Shown here piece by piece: positions 1 to 46,592 of a stretch of 64,000 nt of DNA. The translations under genes were made by a program, and so were the position numbers. Each line of letters starts with the position of its first letter. Positions within the stretch are counted from its first letter, which is position 1. The stretch lies in assembly GCA_944358675.1 (NCBI GenBank), contig CALVRN010000002.1, positions 43,955 through 107,954 of the forward strand, read 5' to 3'. The stretch is from an uncultured Bacilli bacterium (GTDB lineage Bacteria > Bacillota_I > Bacilli_A > RF39 > UBA660). Below the pieces are notes generated by a model. It was given only the letters and a program-made list of their open reading frames with translations. It did no database searches and was not told where the DNA came from.

Positions 1-89
1 TATCACACGCAATTTTATAATTTAATATTTATATGTTATAATTTAAGCAGAAACTTAAATTGTATTTTTGTTGATTGGAGGTAAAATAA

Positions 90-671
90 ATGAAAAGAAA
101 AATTTTTTTGAGTTTTAGGCCTGAATTTTTTAGGCCAATATTATATAACATGAAAATGTATGAATATAGAAAAAGATTTTGTGATGAACCAACGACAGCA
201 TATCTTTATCTAAGCGCCCCTGTACAAGAAGTAATAGGCATAATGGAATTGGGAAAACCAATACATACAGCTGAAAAAATAGACGATTATAATAAAGGTT
301 CTATTATATATGATAGAATTAAAAATTGCCTTAAAAATGGAGAAAAATTTGCTATTCCTATAGAATCTCTACAATTATTTAAACAGCCAATAAGTATAAA
401 TAAAATAAAAGAAATTGATAGTCATTTCAATGTTCCACAATGTTATTTGAATATTCAAAATTTTCCAGCAGTATATGAGTATTTAGAAAAACAAGAATTA
501 TATAATAAAGAATATATCAATTCTCACTCAAAATTATATGAAGACAATTTTTGTATGACCTGTAAGGAAATGGAAATGACAGAAGAATTTAAATTAAAAG
601 ATATTGAATATACCAAAAATAAGAAATATGATATAATTAAAGCGGGATACATAACGAGGAGGTCAAAATGA
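90..671 (+). CDS. ASCH-domain (PUA-like fold, COG4933-type) protein
   Basis: 193-aa ORF. N-terminus IFLSFRPEFFRPILYNMKMYEYRKRF...AYLYLSAPVQEVIGIMELG follows the ASCH pattern as I recall it (I.PEF..I..G.K.YEYRK ... Y.Y...PV..I.G). Its stop overlaps the next start (ATGA at 668-671). Confidence 0.55.
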   Translation: MKRKIFLSFRPEFFRPILYNMKMYEYRKRFCDEPTTAYLYLSAPVQEVIGIMELGKPIHTAEKIDDYNKGSIIYDRIKNCLKNGEKFAIPIESLQLFKQPISINKIKEIDSHFNVPQCYLNIQNFPAVYEYLEKQELYNKEYINSHSKLYEDNFCMTCKEMEMTEEFKLKDIEYTKNKKYDIIKAGYITRRSK

Positions 672-1765
672 AAAATGTATATTATCCATTAGCAGGAATG
701 AATTATATAATAGATGATTTAGCAGAAATTATAAAAAACAAAATGGACGGGAAAAAGGAAATTGTCTTATGGCTTTCGGCACAGGTTAATAGTTACCCAC
801 ATGTCGGTACTCTAACCAATTTTATTTCAGCCTTTGCATTAGCTAAACATTTCAAAAAATATTATAATGTTCCAGTAAAAATAAAAGTTGAGCTTTTAGA
901 AAGTGTTACTGGCGAAGAATTTATGATAGATGGAATTAAGTATTACAAAAATTTAAATATTGTTAAAGATAATAATGGATTAACAATTAAAGAAAAATTT
1001 TTCCCTTATTTTAAAGAGTTATTAGACAAATTAAGTAAAAAAGACAAAATAAATTATGAGGTATTATTTTTTTATGATTATCAAAAAAATCCATTAGTAA
1101 AAGAAGCACTTTATGAAGTAATACAGAACGAAAAAGAATTAAGATACACTTTAGATCCAAAAAATGGCGAAATTAGATTAAGAGTCCCATGCCCTAAATG
1201 TGGCTTAACAGAAAAACATCTTTCTAATACAAAAATTAAAGCTGTAGACAATAAAATTATTATAAATTCTTTTTGTCCAAAACATGGAAATTTTGAAGTA
1301 AAAATCGACAAAAATAGTAATGACAATTTTGATATGAATGTACCATTGCGTTATTTAGTAAAAATATTATATTTATTAAAGCAGGATAAAATTGATAATT
1401 CGTTGAATGTTATTGTTGATGGTGGCGATTGGTCTGGAATGTGGCCTTTACGAGTTTATATGGAACCATTGTTAAAAATGAAAATACATGATGTTCCAAG
1501 TATCATTTATACTCCAACGATATTAGATTGGTCAGGAAGTAAATTGTCAAAAAGAATGTACGTGGGAAATGAAGCGTACAGAGAATATTTAAAAGAAGGT
1601 CTAATTAATTATTCTGAATTTTATAATCAATATGGAGAAATCGGATTCGAAAGATTGTATAATGAAATAAATTCTTGGGTTTTATCTCCAAAGAAATTTA
1701 TTCGTGATTACACAATAGAATATATTGATGCTATTTTAAAAGATGAAAAAATAAATTATATATAA
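668..1765 (+). CDS. class I aminoacyl-tRNA-synthetase-like protein (HIGH-like and KMSKS-like signatures)
   Basis: 365-aa ORF. P-HVGT at residues 44-48 (HIGH-like) and SGSKLSKR near residue 290 (KMSKS-like; KLSKR is the GluRS-type variant), with class-I-like spacing. CPKCG-x24-CPKHG resembles a zinc knuckle. Too short for a complete synthetase and has no anticodon-binding domain. Confidence 0.5.
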   Translation: MKNVYYPLAGMNYIIDDLAEIIKNKMDGKKEIVLWLSAQVNSYPHVGTLTNFISAFALAKHFKKYYNVPVKIKVELLESVTGEEFMIDGIKYYKNLNIVKDNNGLTIKEKFFPYFKELLDKLSKKDKINYEVLFFYDYQKNPLVKEALYEVIQNEKELRYTLDPKNGEIRLRVPCPKCGLTEKHLSNTKIKAVDNKIIINSFCPKHGNFEVKIDKNSNDNFDMNVPLRYLVKILYLLKQDKIDNSLNVIVDGGDWSGMWPLRVYMEPLLKMKIHDVPSIIYTPTILDWSGSKLSKRMYVGNEAYREYLKEGLINYSEFYNQYGEIGFERLYNEINSWVLSPKKFIRDYTIEYIDAILKDEKINYI

Positions 1766-1836
1766 TATTCTAAAAACAAAACCGAAAATTTTGTTTTTTT
1801 ATGCTATAATATTGAGAAAACAATGAGGAGGTATAT

Positions 1837-3102
1837 ATGAGTAATTGTATAATGTGTGCGTCATATCAAAAATTTTATAGTGCTTTAAAAAACTTATCTG
1901 ACTTTATAAAAGCAGAAGAATTTTGCGATGTAGTTTCTTCCATTGATAGTTTTTTTTCTGAATTTAGAAATATAACATTTGTTTTGCAAAAATCATTAGA
2001 TTCTTCCAAAAATAAGAAAATATATAAGCAATTAAGAGATCAATATTTAACCAGTGATGAATTAAAATGGCTTAACGATAAGAGAGCTGAAATAATTCAT
2101 CAAAATCCCTTTAAATTAAATAAGCAAATAATGGTGAATGTATATTTTTATGGAAATAGTAATGAAATTATAAAACATAACTATACTTATGAAAATTGGG
2201 AAAATGCAAAACAATTAGAAAACGAAATTAAAGAGAAACTAAAAAAATTTAAAGCACCAGAAATATATTTGTCTATTATAATTAGATTTACTGAAAATGG
2301 TAAGGAAATAAATATTATTGATTTAATAAAGCATGGAATCGCCGATATGAATAGTTTTCTTACACAATTTAAATTATCCACCAATACTAACTGTCTTAAA
2401 TGTGAAAATATGGAATTAAAAATTTCTGAAAAAATTAAAGAAATATACATATATGAATTATGTTTAGAGAGAGATTATGAATATATACCAAGCACCAATT
2501 TACTAGAGCCTAAATCTAGAGCAAAAATGTTAGGACTTAATAATAATATAAAAAAAAAAGAAAAAAAAATTCCAATAAATAACAACTTTTTTCAAGGTAA
2601 TAATTTAAAAGATATGTTTAAAGATTTCATTTCACATCATATTCTTATTTATAAATTACAAAAACAACATATAATGCCTACTATGTTTATATTTTATAAA
2701 GATAAAACTTTTAAAATAAATTCCTTTTTGGCTGAATCAAAGGCCACATTTTATAGAGAAATAAATACCATAGCTACGCAAATAGAAAGAGAACATATTA
2801 TTGGCATTTTTGTTGTTTGGGAAAGCTATGTATTACCTACTAATATTAATTTTAATGAAAGATATGAAGAACGAGTAAAACATTCAGAAAAAACTATACT
2901 ATGTTTCTATTATATTGATAAAAGTTTAGAAGAAATATTTACCTTTGTTAATAGTGAAACAATTAAAAATGATATATATAAATCCATTAAAGAATCCAAT
3001 TTTAACAGTACTATTAATCCACATTATCAACTTTTTTATTCAATAAGATATAATTTTGCAAAAACTTATCATAAATATTTAAATCTCAAAAATTTTAAAT
3101 AA
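1837..3102 (+). CDS. hypothetical protein, no recognisable domain
   Basis: 421-aa ORF with RBS GAGGAGG 7 nt upstream and a TGcTATAAT extended -10 at 1802-1810. I recognise no motif. Confidence 0.5.
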   Translation: MSNCIMCASYQKFYSALKNLSDFIKAEEFCDVVSSIDSFFSEFRNITFVLQKSLDSSKNKKIYKQLRDQYLTSDELKWLNDKRAEIIHQNPFKLNKQIMVNVYFYGNSNEIIKHNYTYENWENAKQLENEIKEKLKKFKAPEIYLSIIIRFTENGKEINIIDLIKHGIADMNSFLTQFKLSTNTNCLKCENMELKISEKIKEIYIYELCLERDYEYIPSTNLLEPKSRAKMLGLNNNIKKKEKKIPINNNFFQGNNLKDMFKDFISHHILIYKLQKQHIMPTMFIFYKDKTFKINSFLAESKATFYREINTIATQIEREHIIGIFVVWESYVLPTNINFNERYEERVKHSEKTILCFYYIDKSLEEIFTFVNSETIKNDIYKSIKESNFNSTINPHYQLFYSIRYNFAKTYHKYLNLKNFK

Positions 3103-3226
3103 TCAGACATATAGCATTGATATTTTTATTGTAATTTAGTAAAATATTAATAGATTTGATATTTATCAATCTTGTTTTGAGCAAAAGTTCGAGATAGGCT
3201 CGACTGTGGCTCCATTGAAATTTAAA

Positions 3227-3251
3227 CTCACACATTTAAGTGTGGGTTTTT
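3227..3251 (+). terminator. intrinsic terminator hairpin
   Basis: CTCACAC-ATTTAA-GTGTGGG (7 bp including one G-U) followed by TTTTT. Lies 125 nt after the stop of the 1837-3102 gene. Confidence 0.6.
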
Positions 3252-3293
3252 ACTATGCTAAAATTTTAGTGTCAACGGATATTTTAAAAACTA

Positions 3294-3321
3294 TTGACAT
3301 TTTATAAATAAATGTTAGAAT
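3294..3321 (+). promoter_or_regulatory. sigma-A-type promoter of the synthetase-paralogue operon
   Basis: TTGACA (3294-3299), 16-nt spacer, extended -10 TGtTAGAAT (3313-3321). A second TGtTATAAT lies at 3422-3430. Confidence 0.5.
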
Positions 3322-3453
3322 ACTTATAATCATAAGAGCAAAGCTATGTGCATTTTAAAATTAATTTTCAAAAAAATTATTCCTTTATGCATAATCAATT
3401 ATTTAAAATACATTATTAAACTGTTATAATATACAAAAGGAAGTGATATATAC

Positions 3454-4479
3454 GTGATACAAGAACCAAACACTTGGAAACATCCAGATACACATTATTT
3501 AAAAGCTTTAGAAAACCCATGGTATAAAACATTAGTAAAATTAGAAAACTTGGTAACAACAGAAACAATGTATTTTTATCAAAAAAGAGGAATAATAACT
3601 ATTCATCTACCTGTAACAACAGGATCTATCTCTAGCCCAATGGGCAGAGGAAGTGACTCCTTACCAGTAAAGATAAATATAGATGGTGTTGATACTTATT
3701 TAGCAGATTCAATGCAATTTCTATTAGAATATGGTTGCCGATTAAACGAAAAAGGAGTTTATTATATCATGCCAACGTTTAGAGGTGAAAAAGCCGATGA
3801 AAGACATTTATGCCAATTTTATCATAGCGAAGCCGAAATACCTGGAAAATTAGAAGATGTCATGAAGCTAGTTAATGATTATATTAAATATTTGTCAAAA
3901 CAAATCATCAAAAAAATGGGACATGAATTGGAAGAAAAGATAGGTGATATTTCACATATAAAGAAAATTGCTAATTATGATGGTGAATTTCCACAAATAA
4001 CATTTGATGAAGCAGAAAAAAAATTAAAAAAATTACATTCCAAAGACATAAAAAAGTATATTGAATATGAAAATGGCTGGCGAAACATAACAAAAAAAGG
4101 TGAAAAAGAATTAATAAAATTATATAAAGGAATTGTTTGGGTTACTAATTATGATGAACTTGCAGTACCTTTTTATCAGCAAACTGATCAAAATATTAAG
4201 GGGACAGCTAGAAACGCAGATTTGTTAATGGGAATCGGTGAAACGGTTGGTTGTGGTGAACGACATTATAAATATACTACACTAAAAAAATCATTACAAC
4301 AGCATGAAATCAATGCCAAGGAATATGAATGGTATATAAAATTAAGAAAGAAGTATCCAATGCAAACTTCAGGCTTTGGAATGGGAATAGAGAGATTCTT
4401 AATGTGGGTATTAAAAGCAAAAGACATAAGAAACATGCAAATATGTTTAAGATTTAATGGAGAGAATATATTACCATAG
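3454..4479 (+). CDS. Asn/AspRS-type class IIb synthetase catalytic core paralogue lacking the anticodon-binding domain
   Basis: 341 aa, GTG start with RBS AAGGAAGTGA. Motif 2-like FRGEKADERHLCQFYHSEAE. Motif 3-like SGFGMGIERFLMWVL...IRNM. GCGERHY resembles the AsnRS GGSQRE region. No N-terminal OB fold. Confidence 0.7.
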   Translation: MIQEPNTWKHPDTHYLKALENPWYKTLVKLENLVTTETMYFYQKRGIITIHLPVTTGSISSPMGRGSDSLPVKINIDGVDTYLADSMQFLLEYGCRLNEKGVYYIMPTFRGEKADERHLCQFYHSEAEIPGKLEDVMKLVNDYIKYLSKQIIKKMGHELEEKIGDISHIKKIANYDGEFPQITFDEAEKKLKKLHSKDIKKYIEYENGWRNITKKGEKELIKLYKGIVWVTNYDELAVPFYQQTDQNIKGTARNADLLMGIGETVGCGERHYKYTTLKKSLQQHEINAKEYEWYIKLRKKYPMQTSGFGMGIERFLMWVLKAKDIRNMQICLRFNGENILP

Positions 4480-4489
4480 GAGCTTATAA

Positions 4490-5374
4490 ATGAAAGAATA
4501 CGTTGGTAAAGAATTAATAATAATGGCATGTTCTAACTGCAATATAAAATGCTCGCATTGCTATATTAGTTATAAAGGTAATCGAACATCAGAAGAACTT
4601 CTAGAATTAGTTAAACATTTAAAAGGAAGATATCAAATAAATATTAATGGTGCTGAAATTCTAACAAACCCAGAATATTTAAAATCTTATAAAGAAATTG
4701 GGCAACAATTCGTTCTTACAAATGGAAAAGCAATTTTGATAAATCCAAATATTATTAATATTTTAAAACATAATGGAATAACATCAGTTTCGATTTCTTA
4801 TCACTTTGGAATTCAAGATGAACTTTCACCAATCAAACTTTATGATTTAGATAAAGCCATAAATATAATTAAAAAAAGCGGTTTAGAATTTCGACTTTTA
4901 ACAACAATTACTTCTGATAATTATAAATTAATTCCATATATGTGTGCTAGAGCTTATAGTATGGGAGCACGAGGTATAAAGTTTACTAATTTCTTAAGAC
5001 AGGGTAATGCTAAAAATTTAGATAATGCAAACATATTAACAGATCAAAAAATAATAGAAGTATTTAAAAAAATAATGGAAGTAAGGCAAAAATATGATAT
5101 AAATGATTTAATTATAGAAAGATGTGGAAGTTTTGGTAAAAATCCTTTATCAAAGCATGACAATTTTTATTGTGATTGTATTACTGATTCCGTAGTATTG
5201 ACTCCGGATAATAATATTTATCCTTGTGTGTTTTTAGCACAACCAGGTTTTGAAATTGGAATATTTGAAAATGGAATTATCAAAATTGATGAAGACTTTA
5301 TTAATAATCACAAACAATGTTTAGCTAAAAGCATTTGCAATGAAAAAGTAAAAAAACTAGTAAAAAGGAGATGA
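4490..5374 (+). CDS. radical SAM enzyme with Cys-rich (SPASM/twitch-like) C-terminus
   Basis: 294 aa. CNIKCSHC = Cx3Cx2C at residues 17-24. C-terminal cysteines are CGSF...YCDC...YPCVF...QCLAKSIC. Confidence 0.8.
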   Translation: MKEYVGKELIIMACSNCNIKCSHCYISYKGNRTSEELLELVKHLKGRYQININGAEILTNPEYLKSYKEIGQQFVLTNGKAILINPNIINILKHNGITSVSISYHFGIQDELSPIKLYDLDKAINIIKKSGLEFRLLTTITSDNYKLIPYMCARAYSMGARGIKFTNFLRQGNAKNLDNANILTDQKIIEVFKKIMEVRQKYDINDLIIERCGSFGKNPLSKHDNFYCDCITDSVVLTPDNNIYPCVFLAQPGFEIGIFENGIIKIDEDFINNHKQCLAKSICNEKVKKLVKRR

Positions 5375-5379
5375 TAAGT

Positions 5380-6207
5380 ATGAAAAAAGTAAAAAAAGAA
5401 GATTTAGATAAATTAAGCTATACAGATTTTGTTTCATTAATATGTGAAGAAAATAGACCATCAGGAGGAAAATTTACAATTAGAGAAATAGCAAAAAATT
5501 CATTTATAACGAAAGATTCAAAAGTATTAGAAATTGGATGCACAAACGGATTTTCATCATTAGAAATTAATAAATTAACTAATTGCACAGTAATAGGTAT
5601 AGACATCAATGAAAACAGTGTTGATAACGCAAAAAAAAGAATTGCTGAAAATGGCCTTGATTCAAGCAGAATATCCTTTGAAGTTGGTAATGCTGAAGAA
5701 CTTCAATTTTCTGATAATGAATTTGACTTGATTATTTGTGGCAATGCCATGTCATTTGTTTCAAACAAAAGTAAAGCCATTGAAGAATTAAAAAGAGTAT
5801 TAAAGCCAAACGGTTTTATTTCAATTGTCCCTATATGGTACAAGGATATACCAGATAAAAATATTATTGACAAAGTCAACGATGAATTAGGTTTTCAAAT
5901 CAATTGTACTTTTGAACAAGACTGGAATAATTATAATAAATGGAATTTAGAATTATATTACAAAAAAGACTATAGTTTTGTAAAAAGAGCCAAAGCTGAT
6001 ATTGAAAGATATGTTGACAATATGATTGATAATAAACCACATCTAGACATATATAATGAAGAAGAAAAAAAGGTCATAAAAAACAGATGGGAAAGAACTA
6101 TGGAAGTATTTAACGACAACTTAAGTTTAACTAATTTTTCAATTATATTATTGCGTAAAAATTTAGTGAAAGAAGAAGAGGAGCTATTCATAATAAACCA
6201 AAACTAG
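5380..6207 (+). CDS. class I SAM-dependent methyltransferase
   Basis: Motif I VLEIGCTNGFSS and motif-post-I IGIDIN. The track start at 5371 abuts the RBS AAGGAG (5365-5370), so the ATG at 5380 is the more likely start. Confidence 0.8.
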   Translation: MKKVKKEDLDKLSYTDFVSLICEENRPSGGKFTIREIAKNSFITKDSKVLEIGCTNGFSSLEINKLTNCTVIGIDINENSVDNAKKRIAENGLDSSRISFEVGNAEELQFSDNEFDLIICGNAMSFVSNKSKAIEELKRVLKPNGFISIVPIWYKDIPDKNIIDKVNDELGFQINCTFEQDWNNYNKWNLELYYKKDYSFVKRAKADIERYVDNMIDNKPHLDIYNEEEKKVIKNRWERTMEVFNDNLSLTNFSIILLRKNLVKEEEELFIINQN

Positions 6208-6235
6208 ATAAATACTAATTAGGAGGAAGGATTTT

Positions 6236-7723
6236 ATGGAAAAAGCACAAAATAATGAATATGAAGTTAGAAAAATAAAATTAAAAGAATTAAAAAAGGA
6301 AATGGTGGTTTATAAGGACAAATATGATAATATAATTGATTTAAATTTAATTGAAGATTTGCCGGAAGGACAACATGTTAGAGTTGCTGGAAGAGTTGTT
6401 TCCAAAAGATCTTTTGGTAAATTAATGTTTTTAAATTTATATGATGTAAATGGAACAGCTCAAATATCAGTCGCCAAACAAGATTTAGGAGATGATTTTA
6501 ATTTATTTAAAAATAATATTGATGTTGGTGATTACATAGGTGTTGAAGGTAATATTTATATCACAAAAACAGGTATAAAAACCATAAAAACAGATAGTGG
6601 TGAATTATTAAGTAAATCATTAAGACCACTTCCTGAAAAATATCATGGCATAACAGCCCCTGATATAAAATATAGACAAAGATATTTAGATATCATTTCT
6701 AATGATTCTACAAGAAAAACATTTCAAAAAAGAATTCAAATATTAAATGATATTAAAGATTTTCTACGTTCCAATCAATTTGTAGAAGTAGAAACCCCAA
6801 TTTTACAAAATGTTGCTTCTGGGGCTAATGCAAAACCATTTATAACTAAACATAACGCTTTAGATGAGGACTTCTATTTAAGAATTGCTCCAGAATTATA
6901 TTTAAAACAAGTAGTAGAAAGTGGTTTTAATAGAGTATTTGAAATGGGTAAAAATTTTAGAAATGAAGGAATGGATGCTTCTCACTTACAAGAATTTACT
7001 ATGTTAGAGTGGTATGCAGCATATTGGGATTATTTAAAAAATATGGACTTTTTAGAGAGCTTATTAAAAACTGTAATTTCTGATGTTAATGGCAGTCTTG
7101 ATGTTCAATACCAAGGACAAGTGTTTGATTTTAGTAAATTTGAAAAAATTAATTATTCTCAAACTGTTAGTGAATTATTAAATACTGACATTTTAGAATT
7201 CAAAGATGTCGAAGAAATAAAAAAACTATTAAAAGATAACCAAATTTTCTCTGATGATGATTTAGCAGATTTAACTTCTGTTACATCAGCTATTGATTTA
7301 ATTTTTAAGAAAAAAATCAGACCTTATTTAATCCAACCCACAATTCTTTATGATTATCCAGCTTATATGATACCATTAGCTAGAAGAAACGACAATGACC
7401 CAAGAAAAATTGATATGTTTCAATTAGTAGTAAATGGCTGGGAAGTTTCAAAATGTTATTCAGAACTAATCGATCCAGAAATTCAAAGAGAAACGTTTAT
7501 TCAACAGATGATTGATAAAACAAACGGTGATGATGAAGCAATGTCAATTGATGAAGATTTTATTTTAGCCATGGAACATGGAATGCCTCCAATGTCAGGA
7601 TTAGGGTTAGGTATTGACAGGGTTGTTTCCATATTAACTGATGAACCTACTTTAAGAGATGTTATTTTATTTCCACAGATGAAAAAAAATAATCAAGCTC
7701 ATCAAAAAGTTTTAAAAAAATAG
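6236..7723 (+). CDS. lysS: lysyl-tRNA synthetase, class II, full length but divergent in motif 2
   Basis: 495 aa. N-terminal OB region (VRVAGRVVSKRSFGKLMFLNLYD), LRPLPEKYHG, RYRQRYLDII, FRNEGMD...EFTMLEWY, and motif 3 GLGLGIDRVVSILT...RDVILFP. Confidence 0.85.
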   Translation: MEKAQNNEYEVRKIKLKELKKEMVVYKDKYDNIIDLNLIEDLPEGQHVRVAGRVVSKRSFGKLMFLNLYDVNGTAQISVAKQDLGDDFNLFKNNIDVGDYIGVEGNIYITKTGIKTIKTDSGELLSKSLRPLPEKYHGITAPDIKYRQRYLDIISNDSTRKTFQKRIQILNDIKDFLRSNQFVEVETPILQNVASGANAKPFITKHNALDEDFYLRIAPELYLKQVVESGFNRVFEMGKNFRNEGMDASHLQEFTMLEWYAAYWDYLKNMDFLESLLKTVISDVNGSLDVQYQGQVFDFSKFEKINYSQTVSELLNTDILEFKDVEEIKKLLKDNQIFSDDDLADLTSVTSAIDLIFKKKIRPYLIQPTILYDYPAYMIPLARRNDNDPRKIDMFQLVVNGWEVSKCYSELIDPEIQRETFIQQMIDKTNGDDEAMSIDEDFILAMEHGMPPMSGLGLGIDRVVSILTDEPTLRDVILFPQMKKNNQAHQKVLKK

Positions 7724-7756
7724 ATATTCATCAATAGTTTAGGAGGCAAGTAAAAG

Positions 7757-8968
7757 ATGGATTATAATCAATTAGTATCTTTAAAAAAATATATTTGTTC
7801 TGATTATATTAATTATTATAAAGAAAAAGGTTATGATGAGGCACCATCATTACCACTAGATTATAAAGAAGATATCACTTTGGATTTTACCACTTGTACT
7901 ATTTGTAGAGCTAAAGAAAATATTAGAAAAGGAAAAAGAGGAAAAGATTATGTTATGATTCAGCCAGCATTACGTAACACTCATATAGATGTTTTAAGTA
8001 ATATGCATGATGAAGATTTCTTTTTTTCCTTTTTTTCAATGATGGGTGGCTTTAAATATTATTCTAACAATTCTGAAGCCAGTGTTGAATTTAGTCAAAT
8101 AATAAAAAATGAATTTGATTTTTTAAAAAAATACATGAATAATATTGTACTAACTATTCCAATACAATATAAAAACAATTTAAAAATAGATGATGAAACT
8201 ATGTCATATTTAATACATAATGGTTGTAAAATTGTGCTTTCTGAAAATGATGAAAACAATTTAAAATGGAAATATGGAATTTCCAATGTTGTTGGTTATG
8301 GAACAAGGTGGGAAATTTCAAATGGTGGAGATTTAGTAAATTGGGGAAATACAATTAATGTTTTCGTTAATAGCAAACCATTTGGTGTTGATTTTGGAGG
8401 AGGAGTCGAATCTTTAATTTATGCCTATCTAAAGTTAAAAAAATCCATTTATGCAAATGATGCTATGACAGATATGACCAAAGAATTTTGTGAAGAAGAC
8501 ACAGTAAGAGAAAAAATTATTGATTGTATTGTTTCATCAATGTGTATTATTTCAAATAAGAAAAAAATAATTTTAAGAGATAAATACATTTTAGAAACTT
8601 ATATGCGTTTACTTTATTCATTTATGATGATAACTAATCTTTCTGAAGAGGATATTTTAAAAATTGTTAATGATATTAATCAAAAGAATATTAAATTTTT
8701 ACAATTAAAAAATATGACAGAAATTTTTGCAACTTATTTACACAAGGCAAAAAGAAACTTTGACATAATTCTAAATAGTGAAAATATAAATACTGTTTTA
8801 AAATTATTTGATTTCTGTTATAATGAAAGTGATAATAATTGGATGAAGAAAAAAAGAATATTACATAATCACTGTGCCAAATATTTTGTCAACTTATCAG
8901 AAGTGGATTTATTAGCCCTTCAAAAATTCAAAGAAAAGAAATTGAAAAAAGAAAGGAAATTAGTATGA
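7757..8968 (+). CDS. AlaRS-like catalytic-domain paralogue (no editing or C-Ala domains)
   Basis: 403 aa. YINYYKEKGYDEAPSLPL..DITLDFTT....IQPALRN...FFFSFFSMMGGFKYY parallels the AlaRS N-terminal pattern F..FF..KGH...PS..L.P.DPTLLFT....Q.C.R....TFFEMLGNFSFGDYF. GVDFGGGVESL resembles DTGMGLERL. Confidence 0.6.
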   Translation: MDYNQLVSLKKYICSDYINYYKEKGYDEAPSLPLDYKEDITLDFTTCTICRAKENIRKGKRGKDYVMIQPALRNTHIDVLSNMHDEDFFFSFFSMMGGFKYYSNNSEASVEFSQIIKNEFDFLKKYMNNIVLTIPIQYKNNLKIDDETMSYLIHNGCKIVLSENDENNLKWKYGISNVVGYGTRWEISNGGDLVNWGNTINVFVNSKPFGVDFGGGVESLIYAYLKLKKSIYANDAMTDMTKEFCEEDTVREKIIDCIVSSMCIISNKKKIILRDKYILETYMRLLYSFMMITNLSEEDILKIVNDINQKNIKFLQLKNMTEIFATYLHKAKRNFDIILNSENINTVLKLFDFCYNESDNNWMKKKRILHNHCAKYFVNLSEVDLLALQKFKEKKLKKERKLV

Positions 8969-10005
8969 TTAAACCAAAAAAATTATGTAAAGGTGATACT
9001 ATCGCAATTGTCAGTCTTTCAAGTGGAACAGCTGGAGATGCATTATTTAAACATAGGTATGAGCAAGGAAAAAGAAGATTGGAAGAAGTCTTTGGACTAA
9101 AAGTTGTCACCATGCCAAACGCTTTAAAAGGAAGTGAATATCTTTCTAAACATCCAGAGGCCCGTGCTAAAGATTTTATGGATGCAATTAAAGATAAAAA
9201 TATAAAAGGCATTATAAGTAATATAGGAGGTGCTGATACTGTTAGGTTACTTCCTTACATAGATTTTGATGCAATAAAAAACAACCCCAAAGTATTTATG
9301 GGATATTCTGACACAACAGTAAATCATTTTATGATGTATAAAGCCGGTGTAACTTCATATTATGGACCATCAGTAATGGGAGAATTTGCTGAAAACTTTG
9401 AAATGCATGAATATACCAAAAAATACATAAATGAAGTACTATTTCAAAATAAAGAAAGTATTAAAATAACATCAAGCCCAAAATGGACTAGTGAATTTTT
9501 AGATTGGGCGAATGCAGAATATGATAATGTAAACAGAAAAATGAATGATGAAAAACATGGATATGAAATTTTACAAGGTCAAGGAAGTGTAGAAGGTTAT
9601 TTGCTTGGTGGCTGTTTTGATGTATTTCCGATGTTTATAGGTACAGAGATATGGCCAAAAAAGGATGATTGGAAAGGGAAAATTTTATTTTTAGAAACTA
9701 GTGAAGATGAGGTTGAACCTGATTATATTGAATACTATTTAAGAAATTTAATAGCACAAGGAATAATTGATGAAATTAATGGAATCATTATTGGAAAACC
9801 ACAAGATGAAAAATATTATGATGAATACAAAGAAGTGTATAAAAGACTTATTTCTGAAGAAGCAGGTAGACCAGATTTACCAATTTTATATAATGTAAAT
9901 ATTGGTCATACAGCTCCAATGTGCATTTTCCCTATGGGACAAAAAATAAAACTAGATCTTGATAATAAAGAAATCGTTTTTTTAGAAAAACCGATGAGTG
10001 AATAA
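8965..10005 (+). CDS. S66 serine peptidase, MccF (microcin C7 self-immunity) / LD-carboxypeptidase family
   Basis: 346 aa. KGDTIAIVSLSSG, nucleophile elbow MGYSDTT, and C-terminal NIGHTAP histidine. Size and N-terminal region resemble Firmicute MccF-like proteins. The start overlaps the previous stop (ATGA). Confidence 0.8.
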   Translation: MIKPKKLCKGDTIAIVSLSSGTAGDALFKHRYEQGKRRLEEVFGLKVVTMPNALKGSEYLSKHPEARAKDFMDAIKDKNIKGIISNIGGADTVRLLPYIDFDAIKNNPKVFMGYSDTTVNHFMMYKAGVTSYYGPSVMGEFAENFEMHEYTKKYINEVLFQNKESIKITSSPKWTSEFLDWANAEYDNVNRKMNDEKHGYEILQGQGSVEGYLLGGCFDVFPMFIGTEIWPKKDDWKGKILFLETSEDEVEPDYIEYYLRNLIAQGIIDEINGIIIGKPQDEKYYDEYKEVYKRLISEEAGRPDLPILYNVNIGHTAPMCIFPMGQKIKLDLDNKEIVFLEKPMSE

Positions 10006-10029
10006 TTTAAAGCGTATAATTATTGTTTC

Positions 10030-10058
10030 AAGCCTTGCACATTAAAGTGTAAGGCTTT
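10030..10058 (+). terminator. hairpin closing the 3454-10005 operon
   Basis: AAGCCTTGCAC-ATTAAA-GTGTAAGGCTT, an 11-bp stem with one G-U, followed by a short T-rich tail (TAT TAT). Confidence 0.55.
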
Positions 10059-10143
10059 ATTATAATAAATTAATTAATAATAAAAAACTAATATAAATGA
10101 AAAGTAATGTGATTAATTAAAGTGAATGAAAAGGAGCAACAAA

Positions 10144-10806
10144 ATGAAACAAGAAAAGAAATACTATATATATGAAATGAATGGAGTAACTCTCCAAATA
10201 ATATCAGTTATATTTTTAATTATTATGATATTTATAACTTTCTTTTTTTCTAATGAGATTATCATGACTGATAAAAATTTTGAATTAATATTTTTACTTA
10301 TCATTCCATATCTAATTCTCCACGAATTACTTCATAGTATAGCTTACGTTATTAATGGTGCCAAATTCAAAAACATTACCTATGGTGCTCATCTAGAAAA
10401 GGGGATATTATGTTGTTTATGTAAACAAAATGTGAGTAAAAGAAATATCTTAATTTCTTTACTATTCCCATTCATCATAATTGGTGTTATTACTTATATC
10501 ATAGGAATTCTTACAAACAATACTGTCTTAATTTGGTTGTCTATTTTAAATATATCAGGATGTTCAGCTGACTTAATCATGTTTTTTGATCTATTAAAAT
10601 TAAAAGACTTTGAATACTCAGAATACGATAATCCAATGGCTTTCGGATTATACACAAGTAAAGATTTAAGTAAAACCAAACTATTTGGTCTAAAATATAT
10701 TAAACAAACAAACGAATTAGAAAAACACAACTTAAAAAAAGTAAACATCAGTAAAACCAGTATAATAATTTTCATCATATTTATGGTTTTAATATTAATT
10801 TATTAA
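10144..10806 (+). CDS. polytopic membrane protein with HExxH (DUF3267-like putative zincin)
   Basis: Several hydrophobic segments and HELLHS at the start of TM2. RBS AAAGGAG favours the ATG at 10144 over the track start at 10126. Confidence 0.5.
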   Translation: MKQEKKYYIYEMNGVTLQIISVIFLIIMIFITFFFSNEIIMTDKNFELIFLLIIPYLILHELLHSIAYVINGAKFKNITYGAHLEKGILCCLCKQNVSKRNILISLLFPFIIIGVITYIIGILTNNTVLIWLSILNISGCSADLIMFFDLLKLKDFEYSEYDNPMAFGLYTSKDLSKTKLFGLKYIKQTNELEKHNLKKVNISKTSIIIFIIFMVLILIY

Positions 10807-11121
10807 AACTATTTAGTAAATAAATATAATAAACAAGTTATTGTTAAATCATCATTTGGAGAATGGCTTAACTTAAAAGATATAGAAACGCTATCAAAAT
10901 ACCAAGAAAAAATCCTGAAAATAGAATTAAAAGGATTAAAAATATGGAAAAATATATTTATATGTAATATGGACAATAAAGAATGCGATGATTATGATGA
11001 TGAAAAATCAGAAGAAAATATAGAGATTAAATGGTGAAATCACATTTTAATTGATTATGAAAGGTTATCAAAAGATAATCTTTTTTGTAAAATTTTTCCA
11101 AAAACAAAAAAATTATTCAAA

Positions 11122-11135
11122 AGAACAAATGTTCG
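11122..11135 (+). promoter_or_regulatory. LexA (SOS/Cheo) box overlapping the polymerase promoter
   Basis: AGAACAAATGTTCG matches the Gram-positive consensus CGAAC-N4-GTTCG. It lies immediately upstream of TGaTAAAAT (11136-11144) and 26 nt before the polymerase start. Confidence 0.7.
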
Positions 11136-11160
11136 TGATAAAATATAATTGGTGATATAA

Positions 11161-12648
11161 ATGGAGAAGACTTATATATGTATCGATTTAAAAAGTTTTT
11201 ATGCTTCAGTAGAATGTGTAGAAAGAGGATTAGATCCTTTAAAAACAAACCTCGTTGTTGCCGATGAAGAAAGAACAGAAAAAACCATTTGTCTTGCCGT
11301 AAGCCCATCATTAAAACAGTATGGAGTAGGTGGTAGAGCTAGACTATTTGAAGTAATATCAAAAGTAAAAGAAATAAATAAACTAAGAAAAAAACAAAAT
11401 AGTTATAAACCATTTACTGGTCAATCCTCTAATGATGATGAATTAAAAAAAGATAAAACCAAAGAATTATCTTTCATAATAGCTAAACCCAGAATGGCTC
11501 ATTATATAAATACATCAGCCAAAATCTATAGCATATATCTCAAATATTTATCAAGTGATGACATATTCGTATATTCAATTGATGAAATATTTGCCGACAT
11601 AACTAACTATTTAAAATACTATAATCTTGCCCCAGAAGAACTTGTCACCAAAATAATTAATGACATTTATAAACAAACAGGTATTACTGCCACCGCTGGC
11701 ATAGGGACCAATTTATTTCTAGCTAAAGTTGCAATGGACATCGTTGCCAAACACACAAAACCAAACAAATATGGAGTTAGAATAGCTAAGCTTAATGAAA
11801 TAACTTATCGAAAACAAATATGGTATCATAAACCAATTACCGATATTTGGCGGGTAGGTAAAGGAATAGCCAAAAGATTAGAAAAGTATGGCATCTATAC
11901 CATGGGAGATATTGCTAGATGTTCTATTCAAAACGAAGACTTACTTTATAAACTATTCGGTATAAATGCCGAACTATTAATCGATCACGCTTGGGGATAT
12001 GAGCCATGTACAATAGAGTCTATAAAATCCTATACTCCAAATAATAGATGTATAACTTCAGGTCAAGTACTTGATTGTCCATATAATTATAAAGAAACTA
12101 AATTAGTTATCTGTGAAATGGCTGATTCACTTGCCCTAGACCTTACCGCTAAAAGCCTTGTCACAGATAAACTAACCTTAACCATTGGCTATGACATTCA
12201 AAACATAAATAATAATTATGAAGGAGAAATAACCACTGACTTTTATGGAAGAAAAATCCCCAAACATGCTCATGGGACCATAACCTTAACCCATAAAACA
12301 TCATCTTCCAAAATAATTATGAATGCTTTAATAAAACTATATGATAAAATTATTAATCCCAAACTATTAATCAAAAGAATTAACCTAACCGCCATTGATG
12401 TAACAGATGAAAAATTAGAAATTCATAAAACAAAATATCATCAACTAGATTTATTTTCAGATTCAGAAAAACAAACTAACATCTTAGAAAATGAAAAAAA
12501 AGAAGAAGCAAAAGAAAGAAAACTCCAAGGAACCCTTTTAAACATTAAAGAAAAATATGGTAAAAATTCCATTTTAAAACTTATGGATTTAGAAAAAGCT
12601 GCCACCACTAAAAAGCGAAACGAACAAATAGGAGGTCATAATGCCTAA
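11161..12648 (+). CDS. Y-family (translesion) DNA polymerase, UmuC/YqjW/UvrX-like
   Basis: 495 aa. N-terminus ICIDLKSFYASVECVERGLDP...VVAD is typical of Gram-positive Y-family polymerases. Confidence 0.85.
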   Translation: MEKTYICIDLKSFYASVECVERGLDPLKTNLVVADEERTEKTICLAVSPSLKQYGVGGRARLFEVISKVKEINKLRKKQNSYKPFTGQSSNDDELKKDKTKELSFIIAKPRMAHYINTSAKIYSIYLKYLSSDDIFVYSIDEIFADITNYLKYYNLAPEELVTKIINDIYKQTGITATAGIGTNLFLAKVAMDIVAKHTKPNKYGVRIAKLNEITYRKQIWYHKPITDIWRVGKGIAKRLEKYGIYTMGDIARCSIQNEDLLYKLFGINAELLIDHAWGYEPCTIESIKSYTPNNRCITSGQVLDCPYNYKETKLVICEMADSLALDLTAKSLVTDKLTLTIGYDIQNINNNYEGEITTDFYGRKIPKHAHGTITLTHKTSSSKIIMNALIKLYDKIINPKLLIKRINLTAIDVTDEKLEIHKTKYHQLDLFSDSEKQTNILENEKKEEAKERKLQGTLLNIKEKYGKNSILKLMDLEKAATTKKRNEQIGGHNA

Positions 12649-12890: not shown

Positions 12891-13544
12891 ATGGAGTATC
12901 TAATTACGTTTATCGAAGGAATCGCTTCTTTCATCTCACCATGCATATTACCTGTAATTCCAATTTATATTTCTTATTTTGCTACCGAAAGTAAAAGCAT
13001 GAAAAAATCCATCATTAATTCATTAGGCTTTGTTTGCGGATTCAGTATAATCTTTATTCTCTTAGGTGTATTTGCCGGTACTTTTGGCAAATTTGTTCAT
13101 GAGTACACAGATTATATTAATATCATCTTTGGAATATTCTTAATCATAATTGGTTTAAATTATATCGGTGTCTTATTCATCAAATTTTTAAATAAAACAA
13201 AAGGCACAAATCAAGAAAAGAAAAATTTAACATTTATAACATCAGTATTATTTGGAATAATCTTCTCATTATCATGGACCCCATGTGTCGGTGCCTTTTT
13301 ATCATCCGCTTTAATATTAGCTAGTACAACCGGCAGTGTTTTAAAAGGCGCAACCTTATTATTAATCTATTCTCTAGGACTTGCCATCCCGTTTATTGTA
13401 ACAACCTTATTCCTAGAAAAAATGAAAAGCACCTTTGACTTCATAAAGAAACATTATAATATCATAAACAAAATATCGGGAAGCATCTTAATTCTAAGTG
13501 GAGTTTGGTACACCATCACAGGAATTATCGGCATAATTGGTTAG
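12891..13544 (+). CDS. ccdA: cytochrome c biogenesis / thiol-disulfide electron transporter CcdA family
   Basis: Six hydrophobic segments. FISPCILPVIPIY and SWTPCVGAFL motifs. Confidence 0.8.
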   Translation: MEYLITFIEGIASFISPCILPVIPIYISYFATESKSMKKSIINSLGFVCGFSIIFILLGVFAGTFGKFVHEYTDYINIIFGIFLIIIGLNYIGVLFIKFLNKTKGTNQEKKNLTFITSVLFGIIFSLSWTPCVGAFLSSALILASTTGSVLKGATLLLIYSLGLAIPFIVTTLFLEKMKSTFDFIKKHYNIINKISGSILILSGVWYTITGIIGIIG

Positions 13545-13554
13545 GAGGTATAAC

Positions 13555-13992
13555 ATGAATAAAAAAGTAAAATTAATAATTGAAATCGTAATTTTTATAG
13601 CTATATTATGTGCATTCACCGGCATCTATTATTTTAGTCATAGTAACTTAGAAGAACCAGAAGAAGCTGCCAATGTCGGAATAGTTAAAGTCACTGATGA
13701 GAACTTTTCAAAAGAAGTTTTAAGTGCCGATAAACCAGTTGTCTTAGAATTTACATCTAAATCCTGTCCACCTTGTGTAGCTATGTTAACTACATTAATA
13801 GATATTGCCAAAAATAATGAAAATATCAAAATAGCAACCGTTGACATGGATGATAGTGAAAATGATGAAATCATAGAAAAATATGAAATCAGCGCTACTC
13901 CAACACTCATAATATTTGAAAATGGCAAAGTTAAAGAAACATTAGTTGGAGCCGTAAATGAAGATAAAATAATGGATGCCTTAGGAAAGTAG
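13555..13992 (+). CDS. membrane-anchored thioredoxin-like protein
   Basis: N-terminal TM, CPPC active site, thioredoxin fold pattern (ATPTLIIFENGK). RBS AGGAGG precedes the ATG at 13555. Confidence 0.75.
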   Translation: MNKKVKLIIEIVIFIAILCAFTGIYYFSHSNLEEPEEAANVGIVKVTDENFSKEVLSADKPVVLEFTSKSCPPCVAMLTTLIDIAKNNENIKIATVDMDDSENDEIIEKYEISATPTLIIFENGKVKETLVGAVNEDKIMDALGK

Positions 13993-13999
13993 GAAATAT

Positions 14000-14419
14000 A
14001 TGAAAAAAATAGATAAAAAGTTGATAGTATTTATAGTATTATTACTCGTAGCATTTGGCGTTATAGTTTTCTTAATCGATTCTAAAAACACCAAAACCTT
14101 AACCTGCACAGCCGAAGGCACCTCATCTAATATTAAAACAAAATCAAACCTAGAAATAAAAGTCAATAATAAAAAGATAAAAGATATGGTATTTACCGTT
14201 AATATGATTTTCCCAGAAGACCTTTTAGATCAAAGACAAAATTATGTTAATATGATAAGACAAACTAAACCTTATATGAGCGCCTCTGTAACCGATGATG
14301 GAATTAGATTTGTAACCAAAGAACATGGTGGTAGTTTCATAGGAATAGACACCACCCAAGAAATAACCATCTCCGAATTAAAACAAGTTTTAGAAGTGCA
14401 AGGCTATACATGTAAATAA
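14000..14419 (+). CDS. small membrane-anchored hypothetical protein
   Basis: 139-aa ORF with an N-terminal TM/signal anchor. No motif recognised. Confidence 0.4.
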   Translation: MKKIDKKLIVFIVLLLVAFGVIVFLIDSKNTKTLTCTAEGTSSNIKTKSNLEIKVNNKKIKDMVFTVNMIFPEDLLDQRQNYVNMIRQTKPYMSASVTDDGIRFVTKEHGGSFIGIDTTQEITISELKQVLEVQGYTCK

Positions 14420-14449
14420 AAGACAATCCTAAATCCTAGAATTGTCTTT

Positions 14450-15217
14450 TTAATTAATCTCATCAATAATTTCTAACCCAGTCATTTCACACGGAATATT
14501 AAATCTTTTTATATAACTTTTATCAAAATTTTTAAAATTGTTCATTCCAATATCATACACCTGCATATCCACACCATGTAACTTAAGAACAAAAACACTT
14601 TCTTTTGTATAAGCACCATAAGGATAAGCAAAAACCTTTAAATCTTGCTTTCCTAAATGCTTTTCAATCAAATCATAAGATTTCTTAACATCATCCTTAA
14701 GCTCTCTAACTGGTAGTCTATCATAAAACACATGTTTCGTACTATGACTAAAAATCTCAACCAAACCACTTTCATACATAATTTCACACTGTCTCCAAGA
14801 TAAATACTTTTTACCATCAATCATCTTCCCAATATTATCCGTAACTATAAAAATAGAAGCCTTCACATTATACTTTTCTAAAATCGGGAAAATATATCTG
14901 TAATTACTATAATAACCATCATCAAACGTAATTAAAATCGGTTTATTAGGAAGTTCTTTCTTCCCGTTATAAGCATCATCTAAATCTTCAAACGATAAAA
15001 AAGTATAACCATTATCTAATAATGTTTTAATATTTTCTTCAAAACTTAAAGGTGTATTTATATAATTAAAATCATCCGGATCTTCATCAGGAACCCTCAC
15101 CACAAAATCGTGATATAAAAGTATCGGAATATCTATATTTTCTCTTTTGTCTCTCTTTAAACAAATAACTCCAATAATAATTAAAACAAGAATAATTAAT
15201 ATAACTATCTTTTTCAT
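14450..15217 (-). CDS. polysaccharide deacetylase (NodB/IcaB-like), membrane anchored
   Basis: ILITFDDGYYSNY and HSTKH motifs, N-terminal TM. Several in-frame starts (15229/15223/15217); the last has the best RBS spacing. Confidence 0.75.
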   Translation of the reverse strand: MKKIVILIILVLIIIGVICLKRDKRENIDIPILLYHDFVVRVPDEDPDDFNYINTPLSFEENIKTLLDNGYTFLSFEDLDDAYNGKKELPNKPILITFDDGYYSNYRYIFPILEKYNVKASIFIVTDNIGKMIDGKKYLSWRQCEIMYESGLVEIFSHSTKHVFYDRLPVRELKDDVKKSYDLIEKHLGKQDLKVFAYPYGAYTKESVFVLKLHGVDMQVYDIGMNNFKNFDKSYIKRFNIPCEMTGLEIIDEIN

Positions 15218-18044: not shown

Positions 18045-18061
18045 TTAGAAAGGAAATCTAT

Positions 18062-18268
18062 ATGAAAGAAATAGAATTAAAAGTAGAAGGAATGACTTGT
18101 GAAGGCTGTGAAAGACGCATCCAAAATGTCTTAATGGATATTGATGGTGTTGAAAACGCTAAAGCAAGTCACACGGACAAAAACATTAAAATCACATTAA
18201 ATAAAGATGTTGACATAAATACTTTAAAAAAAGCAATCGAAGATTTAGACTTTAAAGTAGTAGAGTAG
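18062..18268 (+). CDS. copZ: copper chaperone CopZ
   Basis: 68 aa, heavy-metal-associated fold with GMTCEGC. Confidence 0.85.
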   Translation: MKEIELKVEGMTCEGCERRIQNVLMDIDGVENAKASHTDKNIKITLNKDVDINTLKKAIEDLDFKVVE

Positions 18269-18276
18269 GTGAAATT

Positions 18277-45588: not shown

Positions 45589-45619
45589 AAGCAAAAGATA
45601 GAGACGTTATATTAAACAA

Positions 45620-45802
45620 AAGTTTAAAGAGAGTTAGTGGCGGGTGAGAACTAATAACTTTTTAATATATGGATCACTCTTGATGCTTCTTTTTGAAACA
45701 AAGTAAATAAGAACGGTAACGCGTTATAGTTATTAAGTGTATTTTTAAAATAAAATAAGGTGGTACCGCGGGAAAACTCGTCCTTAAATAGGACGTTTTT
45801 TT
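45620..45802 (+). promoter_or_regulatory. T-box riboswitch, isoleucine specifier (AUC)
   Basis: AAAGAGAG (45626-45633). ATC followed by A, then CTCT pairing back to AGAG (specifier 45673-45675). T-box AAGGTGGTACCGCGG (45757-45771). Terminator CGTCCT-5 nt-AGGACG plus T7 (45779-45802). Confidence 0.85.
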
Positions 45803-45859
45803 GTTGATTTCATTGTGAAAATAATACCTATATGCTATAATAAAAAGAAGGTGAATGAA

Positions 45860-46591: not shown

Positions 46592-46592
46592 T

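Follow-up and report, generated by a model that had tools for sequence, protein, structure and literature searches.

Why should three genes of aminoacyl-tRNA synthetase type be packed into one operon with a radical S-adenosylmethionine (SAM) enzyme, a methyltransferase and a serine hydrolase related to the microcin-C-detoxifying enzyme MccF? The question is raised by a 64,000-nucleotide stretch of DNA, hereafter the window, which corresponds to positions 43,955 to 107,954 of contig CALVRN010000002.1 (assembly GCA_944358675.1) from an uncultured Bacilli bacterium (RF39; UBA660). Six plus-strand genes in this window code in succession for an asparagine-synthetase-A-like (AsnA-like) protein, a radical SAM enzyme, a methyltransferase, a lysyl-tRNA synthetase (LysRS), a short protein resembling alanyl-tRNA synthetase (AlaRS) and an S66-family hydrolase. 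The answer tentatively favoured here, to which somewhat less than an even chance is attached, is that the block may specify a tRNA-coupled aminoacyl- or peptidyl-nucleotide pathway equipped with its own hydrolase, the resultant compound being a mimic of an aminoacyl-adenylate. An earlier note on this DNA had envisaged a biosynthesis-plus-immunity module: its view of the genes as a unit with an MccF-type protective side held good, whereas its casting of the AlaRS-like protein as a ligase is unlikely and that of LysRS as the target doubtful, and the radical SAM enzyme and the AsnA-like protein proved to be optional components.

The strongest indication that the genes belong together is their recurrence elsewhere. 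Comparison with other loci (designated by L numbers; Table 1) established at least four architectures of the block in metagenomic Bacillota, with the gene order shuffled and the AlaRS-like proteins sharing 38-100% identity, and the partner genes were present wherever the flanking DNA sufficed. An invariant core consisting of LysRS or a LysRS-like protein, the AlaRS-like protein, the S66 hydrolase and the methyltransferase was accompanied by a set of changing parts, namely the AsnA-like protein, a radical SAM enzyme of either the SPASM or the KamA type, two dCTP-deaminase-like (DCD) genes, an S51 peptidase and a truncated Rel protein. The pair of DCD genes characterised variant 2, a very common form, its LysRS being recorded in 177 blocks of the collection. 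That housekeeping genes had come together by chance could be ruled out, because the same set recurs in different orders with different flanks, and the flanking genes differ from species to species. The operon is, as had been proposed, a single unit, and it is co-conserved in other genomes. Flanks were also seen to vary among strains whose LysRS is 99% identical.

The distribution of the block is restricted. The AlaRS-like family comprised 57 clusters at 90% identity in a set of 5.8 billion proteins, almost all of them metagenomic, and was found in 4 of 185,579 species representatives; searches for the AlaRS-like gene on plasmids or phages returned no match. Apparent splits were recorded in the AlaRS-like gene of L026 (8992-9971), where the rest of the block is missing, in the S66 gene of L029 (620-1666), in the methyltransferase gene of L042 (9516-9976) and in a DCD gene of L016 (8212-8731), and these broken copies argue for dispensability unless they are assembly errors. 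In most loci the module is preceded by a truncated RelA/SpoT protein of ~480 amino acids containing only the HD, synthetase and TGS domains, which scores above the cutoff for the RelA/SpoT family and, at 68-75% identity, is more strongly conserved than any other neighbour; in L032 a 727-amino-acid Rel encoded elsewhere on the contig takes its place. Genes of mobile elements were also noted near the module: a Mob_Pre relaxase just upstream of the window start (L001, 1-1080), a Mob_Pre fragment plus a serine recombinase (L013, 6932-7492 and 18012-18959) and an rve transposase (L016, 2090-2767).

Of the six products, the AlaRS-like protein is the most informative as to the possible chemistry. Its sequence signal for AlaRS was weak (Pfam 21.7 bits; profile against PDB, E = 0.003), and its AlphaFold2 model (pLDDT 92.6) gave as top Foldseek matches the catalytic fragments of AlaRS (420-450 amino acids; E 3e-12, TM ~0.62), the editing and C-Ala domains not being present. 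The family was aligned to E. coli AlaRS, the reference sequence used matching PDB entry 3hxu at E = 4.7e-302, and this alignment equated R73, W171, N198, I200, D212 and G214 of the window protein with R69, W170, N212, V214, D235 and G237 of the E. coli enzyme, all of them alanine-pocket or motif-2 residues; the FFxMxG adenine-binding element was likewise conserved. By comparison, motif 3, which reads GLER in E. coli, is GVES in the window protein, and the arginine is replaced by serine or threonine in 27 of 27 aligned members. The motif-3 arginine of class II synthetases is required for ATP binding. Because this residue has been lost while the alanine and adenine pocket has been kept, activity as an adenylating ligase, the role previously suggested for this truncated protein, is unlikely, and the pattern fits a transferase of the AcmF type.

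An exhaustive profile search for short AlaRS-like proteins extended this result. The superfamily so defined comprised 302 representatives (clusters at 50% identity), every one of 320-430 amino acids, and the best 150 matches included no full-length AlaRS. When 128 remote members were compared at active-site positions, the motif-3 position was occupied by T, S, V or A in nearly all, with one Arg among the rows listed, while glutamate stood at the D235 position in 102 and glutamine at the N212 position in 14. To judge from these residue patterns, the window protein is most aptly placed within an AcmF-like superfamily and not among the adenylating ligases, and is predicted to be either an aminoacyl-tRNA-dependent transferase or an aminoacyl-adenylate-binding protein.

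AcmF itself, a truncated AlaRS-like enzyme, takes alanine from Ala-tRNA and attaches it to a nucleoside sulfamate; it carries the substitutions N219Q and D232E, the same two exchanges as occur among the remote superfamily members, in addition to the loss of ATP-binding residues, while AcmD is an extra full-length AlaRS that both supplies AcmF with charged tRNA and confers resistance (PMC12945691). The parallels between the ascamycin pair from Streptomyces sp. 80H647 (PMC12945691) and the present block are considerable: in each a truncated AlaRS-like protein with a defective ATP site retains only the aminoacylation and tRNA-recognition domains, a full-length synthetase is encoded alongside (here the proposed source of charged tRNA), and a hydrolase is included in the cluster. 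In the ascamycin system that hydrolase removes the aminoacyl group and the product is an aminoacyl-adenylate mimic, as is proposed here. There are also clear differences, in that the partner synthetase is LysRS and not AlaRS, the motif-3 arginine is the shared loss whereas the window clade retains Asn and Asp where AcmF has Gln and Glu, sulfamate, halogenase and nucleoside-building genes are lacking, a cytoplasmic S66 enzyme stands in place of a secreted alpha/beta hydrolase, and the block is found in anaerobic gut Bacillota of low GC content.

The hydrolases provide the strongest pointer to aminoacyl-nucleotide chemistry. Against PDB, the S66 protein of the window matched B. anthracis Ba3275 at 1e-118 and MccF at 1.6e-38, with LdcA far behind (6e-18 and 4e-4), and its motifs (G-Y-S115-D and GH315) were accompanied by no signal peptide; its earlier designation as an MccF-type enzyme is therefore well founded. 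Assignment as an LdcA-type LD-carboxypeptidase was considered and rejected, since the protein scored 60 bits against an NCBIfam LdcA cutoff of 378 and the PDB matches favour Ba3275 and MccF. The L009 and L032 blocks carry a different S66 protein, ~25% identical to that of the window, and in L009, the most divergent variant, this protein is a close MccF homologue (2.5e-76 against B. anthracis MccF; 1.7e-59 against E. coli MccF), while L006 adds a peptidase resembling PepE of family S51. The S51 family is the second known microcin-C-detoxifying family besides the MccF-type S66 enzymes: its MccG members cleave the isoaspartyl-nucleotide warhead of microcin C, preferring cytidylates, and homologues of MccF and MccG are also widely found as free-standing genes that confer basal resistance (PMC9239234).

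Resemblances to the microcin C system (mccABCDEF, MccG) go beyond these MccF-type and S51 hydrolases, in that an Asp/Asn-adenylate enzyme together with an enzyme of the SAM-dependent methyltransferase fold recalls the aspartyl-nucleotide warhead and MccD, and the cytidine-nucleotide enzymes of variant 2 recall the peptidyl-cytidylate relatives of microcin C. Unlike that system, the block has no detected equivalent of the MccA precursor, the ThiF-like transferase MccB or the exporter MccC, and has synthetase paralogues and tRNA-Lys instead; it is, moreover, chromosomal, apparently vertically inherited, and was not found on plasmids.

The second consistent theme is lysine tRNA. A gene of LysRS type occurs in all architectures, either as LysRS or as a degenerate paralogue. 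The LysRS of the window possesses both the anticodon-binding OB domain (Pfam tRNA_anti-codon) and the tRNA-synt_2 domain, with motifs FRNE241 and GLGLGIDR455 intact. In the L006 variant a degenerate LysRS paralogue and then an S51 peptidase of the PepE/MccG family occupy positions 12956-15005, and although the former has lost motifs 2 and 3 and sustained deletions, it has retained the OB domain, which suggests that the module needs tRNA-Lys binding. In L009, alone among the loci, a tRNA-Lys(UUU) gene is present; it precedes a first LysRS gene, the block itself contains a second, and each of the two proteins scores above the LysRS cutoff. The closest relatives of the in-block copy occupy ordinary, non-block contexts. 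Taken together, the tRNA-Lys gene and the dead LysRS point to the supply or binding of tRNA-Lys as opposed to a resistant target. In L009 and L032 only, a KamA-family (lysine-2,3-aminomutase-like) radical SAM gene lies beside LysRS, which in terms of the favoured reading would represent lysine chemistry. The L009 block (2488-11167) brings together the tRNA-Lys(UUU) gene, two LysRS genes and KamA-family, AlaRS-like, AsnA-like, MccF-type and methyltransferase genes, and could be a natural beta-lysine/tRNA-Lys system.

The last of these arrangements is reminiscent of EpmA/EpmB, given the juxtaposition of LysRS-family proteins and a KamA-family radical SAM enzyme in L009 and L032. In contrast to EpmA, however, these are full-length LysRS proteins that score above the family cutoff, the radical SAM enzyme of the window is SPASM-like as opposed to KamA-type, an efp gene was not found nearby, and nothing in that system corresponds to the AlaRS-like, S66 and methyltransferase genes.

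The remaining proteins can be accommodated as modifying or tailoring activities. The AsnA-like protein lacks an OB domain by Pfam and has motif 2 (FRGE109) and motif 3 (GFGMGIER307) intact. The best NCBIfam models for asparagine synthetase A gave 262 bits (cutoff 322) and 251 bits (cutoff 389), compared with 159 bits for AsnRS, while among PDB entries AsnRS 1x54 was the best match (2e-25), ahead of the archaeal-type asparagine synthetase AS-AR (1nnh, 6e-14). The prior description of an Asn/AspRS-type core without an anticodon domain was thus upheld; in architecture and motifs the protein fits AS-AR, but the model scores fall short of their cutoffs and AsnRS structures are the better matches. 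AS-AR converts Asp plus NH3 to Asn, and EpmA transfers beta-lysine onto EF-P; like both, the AsnA-like protein is a class IIb core with no anticodon domain and with motifs 2 and 3 intact. Unlike AS-AR, it falls below the curated asparagine synthetase A cutoffs, stands nearer to AsnRS, is encoded in a conserved operon with non-translational partners and is dispensable in variant 2. Its sequence would be that of a putative Asp/Asn-adenylate-forming amide ligase.

The radical SAM protein scored 27.6 bits against Pfam Radical_SAM, just below the cutoff of 29.5, and weakly matched the NCBIfam families AhbD, NirJ2, anSME and other SPASM families. Its gene is missing from L011, L025 and variant 2 and is replaced in L009 by one of KamA type, the radical SAM and AsnA-like genes being optional parts overall (loci L011, L013, L006, L025, L028 and L030). 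The methyltransferase, the start of which agrees with the L001 gene calls, occurs in every architecture, although the variant 1 and variant 2 proteins share only ~30% identity.

From these components the following scheme may be put together. LysRS would charge tRNA-Lys and in the window lineage may serve also as the ordinary cellular LysRS. The AlaRS-like fragment would bind alanine or another small aminoacyl moiety beside adenosine and, in the fashion of AcmF, would move an amino acid from its charged tRNA donor to the amine of a nucleoside- or nucleotide-like acceptor lodged where the adenylate was once bound. An amide-forming step of the Asp/Asn-adenylate type may be contributed by the AsnA-like enzyme, tailoring of the putative and possibly exported product would fall to the methyltransferase and, where present, the radical SAM enzyme, and the MccF-type S66 hydrolase would cut the aminoacyl-nucleotide amide bond by way of self-protection or maturation. 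The DCD genes of variant 2 and the Rel fragment of many loci fit the nucleotide theme. Full-text literature searches found no published description of this gene combination, which is undescribed and for which the nearest known logic is that of the AcmD/AcmF pair combined with hydrolysis of the MccF/MccG type.

The six open reading frames (ORFs) are tightly packed between 3454 and 10005, with gaps of 10, 5, 28, 33 and -4 nucleotides; the AlaRS-like stop overlaps the S66 start in the ATGA at 8965-8968, and the S66 gene is regarded as translationally coupled to its neighbour. The predicted promoter sits in a 351-nucleotide gap between the upstream gene (1837-3102) and the operon; it is the top-scoring promoter-like site of positions 1-11200, agreeing with the consensus at 11 of 12 positions, in an AT-rich region where such matches are frequent (97 found against 88 expected). 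No plus-strand terminator was scored in the gap between 3102 and 3454. Downstream of the block, the terminator-like hairpin was equalled in folding by none of 200 shuffled sequences. Searches in and beside the operon found no tRNA gene or Rfam element, and none of the six proteins was found to have a signal peptide or a membrane segment. Matches to PADLOC were generic (methyltransferase to mad2; radical SAM protein, weakly, to pVip) and gave no system-level identity as an anti-phage system. The gene coordinates, spacing, promoter and closing hairpin given in the earlier note were all borne out, save that the hairpin ends at 10057, and domain or structure searches backed each of its six protein identities.

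Table 1. Features of the window, architectures of the block in the loci compared, and associated genes.
Feature	Location	Strand	Evidence or composition
AsnRS-derived class IIb core without anticodon-binding domain, asparagine-synthetase-A-like	3454..4479	+	Pfam tRNA-synt_2 7e-41
Radical SAM enzyme, Cys-rich (SPASM/twitch-like) C-terminal part	4490..5374	+	C17x3C21x2C24 plus six C-terminal Cys
Class I SAM-dependent methyltransferase	5380..6207	+	Pfam Methyltransf_31, _11 and _25 at 1e-23 to 1e-27
Full-length class II LysRS	6236..7723	+	NCBIfam lysine--tRNA ligase, 548 bits (cutoff 468)
Stand-alone AlaRS-like aminoacylation and tRNA-recognition fragment, 403 amino acids	7757..8968	+	AlphaFold2 model, Foldseek, motif-3 Arg missing
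S66 serine hydrolase, MccF-related	8965..10005	+	Pfam Peptidase_S66 and S66C
Predicted promoter, sigma-70-type TTGACA-16-TAGAAT with extended -10 TG	3294..3321	+	Consensus match only
Terminator-like hairpin, 11-bp stem then TATTAT	10030..10057	+	Folding free energy -20 kcal/mol, z = -5.1
Variant 1	window, L003, L011, L022-25, L027, L042-44		(short Rel)-AsnA-like-(radical SAM)-methyltransferase-LysRS-AlaRS-like-S66
Variant 2	L013, L016-19, L028, L030		short Rel-AlaRS-like-S66-methyltransferase-DCD-DCD-LysRS
L006 variant	L006		Order as variant 2; degenerate LysRS paralogue, then S51 peptidase
L009/L031 and L032 variant	L009, L031, L032		Shuffled order; KamA-family aminomutase beside LysRS; in L009 also tRNA-Lys(UUU) and second LysRS
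Truncated Rel	L011 5081-6535; L013 8476-9921; L042 5392-6837		HD-synthetase-TGS
Partner gene, 193 amino acids	90-671		PADLOC candidate defence family PDC-M11B, the only match
Class I synthetase catalytic-domain paralogue, 365 amino acids	668-1765		Foldseek top match class I LysRS 1irx, 3e-10

A number of observations weigh against the synthesis of an aminoacyl- or peptidyl-nucleotide. As the earlier note had itself conceded, several expected components are wanting: no exporter was found in the operon or conserved beside the block at any locus, no MccB/ThiF-type nucleotidyl transferase in the operon or linked genes at any locus, and no credible, conserved small ORF for a precursor peptide, the gap between 3102 and 3454 holding non-conserved ORFs of 21-46 amino acids, while ORFs of 39 (L003) and 49 (L017) amino acids are mutually unrelated and do not end in Asn. 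To these may be added the lack of dedicated nucleoside-building genes in the window version, the failure of PADLOC and NCBIfam to give a system-level match for the operon, and a base composition (26-27% GC in the region) in which the operon is unremarkable. The AlaRS-like pocket, furthermore, is alanine-sized, so that lysine as the transferred residue does not fit, the clade of the window protein keeps N198 and D212 at the positions of the two diagnostic AcmF substitutions, and the comparison with AcmF was limited to its reported residues.

The LysRS gene adds to the same side of the account. Between the window and L003 the LysRS proteins share 70% identity, compared with 69% for the housekeeping GlyRS of the same pair; the module stands among LeuRS and MetRS genes in L042-44, beside ArgRS in L011 and beside GlyRS in L003; and it has been kept in the 1.26-Mb complete genome OZ006994.1, the metagenome-assembled genome that contains L011. 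Such vertical-looking inheritance, synthetase neighbours and small genome size speak more for core physiology than for antibiotic production. Because of this GlyRS-like divergence, these synthetase flanks and this small genome, the LysRS of the window lineage probably doubles as the cell's own enzyme, and its previously suggested role as an extra, resistant target is doubtful. No second LysRS gene was found within the 64-kb window. Across the loci the indirect signs of an extra copy are mixed, L009 having two LysRS genes and L006 a dead paralogue.

That same body of evidence is the mainstay of an alternative in which the block is simply linked to translation, LysRS and the truncated Rel being the only copies of their kind and the AsnA-like protein being an asparagine synthetase, with the AlaRS-like, S66, methyltransferase and radical SAM proteins modifying tRNA-Lys, Lys-tRNA, a translation factor or another protein, much as EpmA and EpmB beta-lysylate EF-P. 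The GlyRS-like divergence of LysRS, the position between LeuRS and MetRS or beside ArgRS or GlyRS, the retention in a complete genome of 1.26 Mb, the high conservation of a short Rel that passes its family cutoff, the EpmB-like aminomutases beside LysRS in L009 and L032, and the hint of tRNA-Lys binding given by the dead LysRS with its anticodon domain all favour it. Though plausible, it is accorded only a low probability, given a family so rare and patchy in its distribution, the broken copies in four loci (if these are not assembly errors), and a turnover of parts in which the S66 enzymes are non-orthologous, the methyltransferases ~30% identical, and the AsnA-like and radical SAM genes swapped for DCD genes. 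An efp gene or any other protein that might be an evident target is missing from the neighbourhood, and S66 and S51 enzymes are not known to take part in RNA or protein modification. Those hydrolases are, conversely, the starting point for a purely protective role, in which the S66 enzyme (with S51 in L006) would destroy imported aminoacyl-nucleotide antibiotics resembling microcin C or ascamycin, the AlaRS-like protein with its defective ATP site would bind aminoacyl-adenylate mimics as a decoy or substrate-presenting partner, the methyltransferase would modify the drug or its target, and the placement among synthetase genes would reflect co-expression with the protected enzymes. The widespread occurrence of MccF and MccG homologues as stand-alone basal resistance genes (PMC9239234) accords with this, as do the adjacent and often overlapping AlaRS-like and S66 genes, an alanyl-adenylate pocket conserved save for the ATP-binding arginine, the failure to find exporter and scaffold-building genes, and the frequency with which the neighbours are other synthetase genes. 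A protective role would, however, leave unexplained the LysRS linkage, the tRNA-Lys gene, the dead LysRS, the KamA aminomutase, an AsnA-like enzyme apparently intact for adenylate formation and the radical SAM enzyme, while the AcmF-signature relatives of the AlaRS-like family indicate catalysis over sequestration; it is plausible but given a low probability.

A cell-wall module, which the earlier note had deemed equally conceivable, fares less well. The AlaRS-like protein would then be a non-Fem transferase moving L-Ala from Ala-tRNA to the stem lysine of peptidoglycan, the AsnA-like protein would add or amidate a cross-bridge Asx residue, and the S66 enzyme would be an LD-carboxypeptidase. 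The alanine-sized pocket, the inclusion of LD-carboxypeptidases in family S66 and the presence of Mur-ligase-like, Ddl-like and amidase genes in the organism are compatible with this; on the other hand, both S66 types of the module resemble MccF far more closely than they do LdcA, neither a signal peptide nor a membrane segment occurs in any of the six proteins, at no locus is the block linked to a gene for a Fem/MurM protein, a Mur ligase or a lipid II enzyme, and LysRS, tRNA-Lys, KamA, DCD, methyltransferase, S51 and Rel would be left without a role. Since two independent recruitments have been made from both known families of aminoacyl-nucleotide hydrolase, cell-wall chemistry is hard to sustain and is rated very improbable, the hydrolase types favouring an aminoacyl- or peptidyl-nucleotide instead. 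Lastly, such a nucleotide might never leave the cell: made from Lys-tRNA, or from beta-lysyl-tRNA in the variants that possess a KamA aminomutase, a second LysRS and a tRNA-Lys gene of their own, it could act as a reversible intracellular brake on a synthetase, with the S66 enzyme as the off-switch and the truncated Rel as a link to the stringent response, the whole constituting a growth-control or toxin-antidote circuit and not an antibiotic system. This proposal is given a slim chance, and the aminoacyl- or peptidyl-nucleotide pathway with its own hydrolase remains the tentatively preferred account.

Upstream of the operon lies a further gene pair, the second member of which had been described as a fourth synthetase-like gene, coupled to an ASCH gene and forming part of the same assemblage. 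Its class I fold was substantiated, with GluRS and MetRS as the next-best Foldseek matches after class I LysRS and with a Zn-ribbon insert containing the invariant residues C175, C178, C203 and H206. The ASCH label for its overlapping neighbour was discarded, there being no Pfam support for it even at E <= 1, and inclusion of the class-I-like gene in the operon was rejected, as it is not co-conserved with the block and the pair recurs in unrelated, mobile-looking contexts. Block-bearing loci other than those of the window's own species were found to lack it, while in L038-41 members of this family (114 clusters) overlap the gene of a ~199-amino-acid partner beside helicase, nuclease, SSB and transposase genes with the six-gene block absent. 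A distant member of the family (37% identity) follows AlkZ-like genes, and two distant homologues are fused to an AdoMet-decarboxylase-like domain. The two genes represent a separate two-gene module that is probably mobile or defence-related.

Other observations concern the surroundings of the block. Between the class-I-like gene and the operon there is a 421-amino-acid ORF (1837-3102) with no match in Pfam, NCBIfam or PADLOC. At 45586-52140 of the window a T-box leader (108 bits) stands before an unusual gene set made up of an alpha/beta hydrolase (45815-46591), a Mur-ligase-like protein (46593-48191), a D-Ala-D-Ala-ligase-like protein (48198-49394) and IleRS (49351-52140). This IleRS (929 amino acids) shares 32% identity with that of L003 (17931-21026; 1031 amino acids), as against 69% for GlyRS from the same sources, and the window organism and its L003 relative carry different IleRS types. 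In L009 a ThiF/Prok-JAB fusion and a separate Prok-JAB gene of the ubiquitin-like conjugation type (16741-20078) lie ~5.6 kb downstream of the module, beyond three opposite-strand genes, and are probably unrelated to it.

Were the favoured reading correct, the block would provide a second instance of a rare enzymatic principle: it would be the first pathway outside the actinomycetes to pair an AlaRS fragment with a full-length synthetase via charged tRNA in the production of an aminoacyl-adenylate-type compound, and the first such pathway to be built around tRNA-Lys. It would also assign a role to ~300 clusters (50% identity) of short AlaRS-like proteins, tie hydrolases of the MccF/MccG type to peptidyl-nucleotide synthesis without a ribosomal precursor, and place synthetase inhibitors, or resistance to them, in common uncultured gut bacteria. 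Should the block prove instead to serve a housekeeping function, a new process linked to tRNA-Lys would even so be indicated by the dead LysRS, by the tRNA-Lys gene and by the pairing of the AlaRS-like protein with S66.

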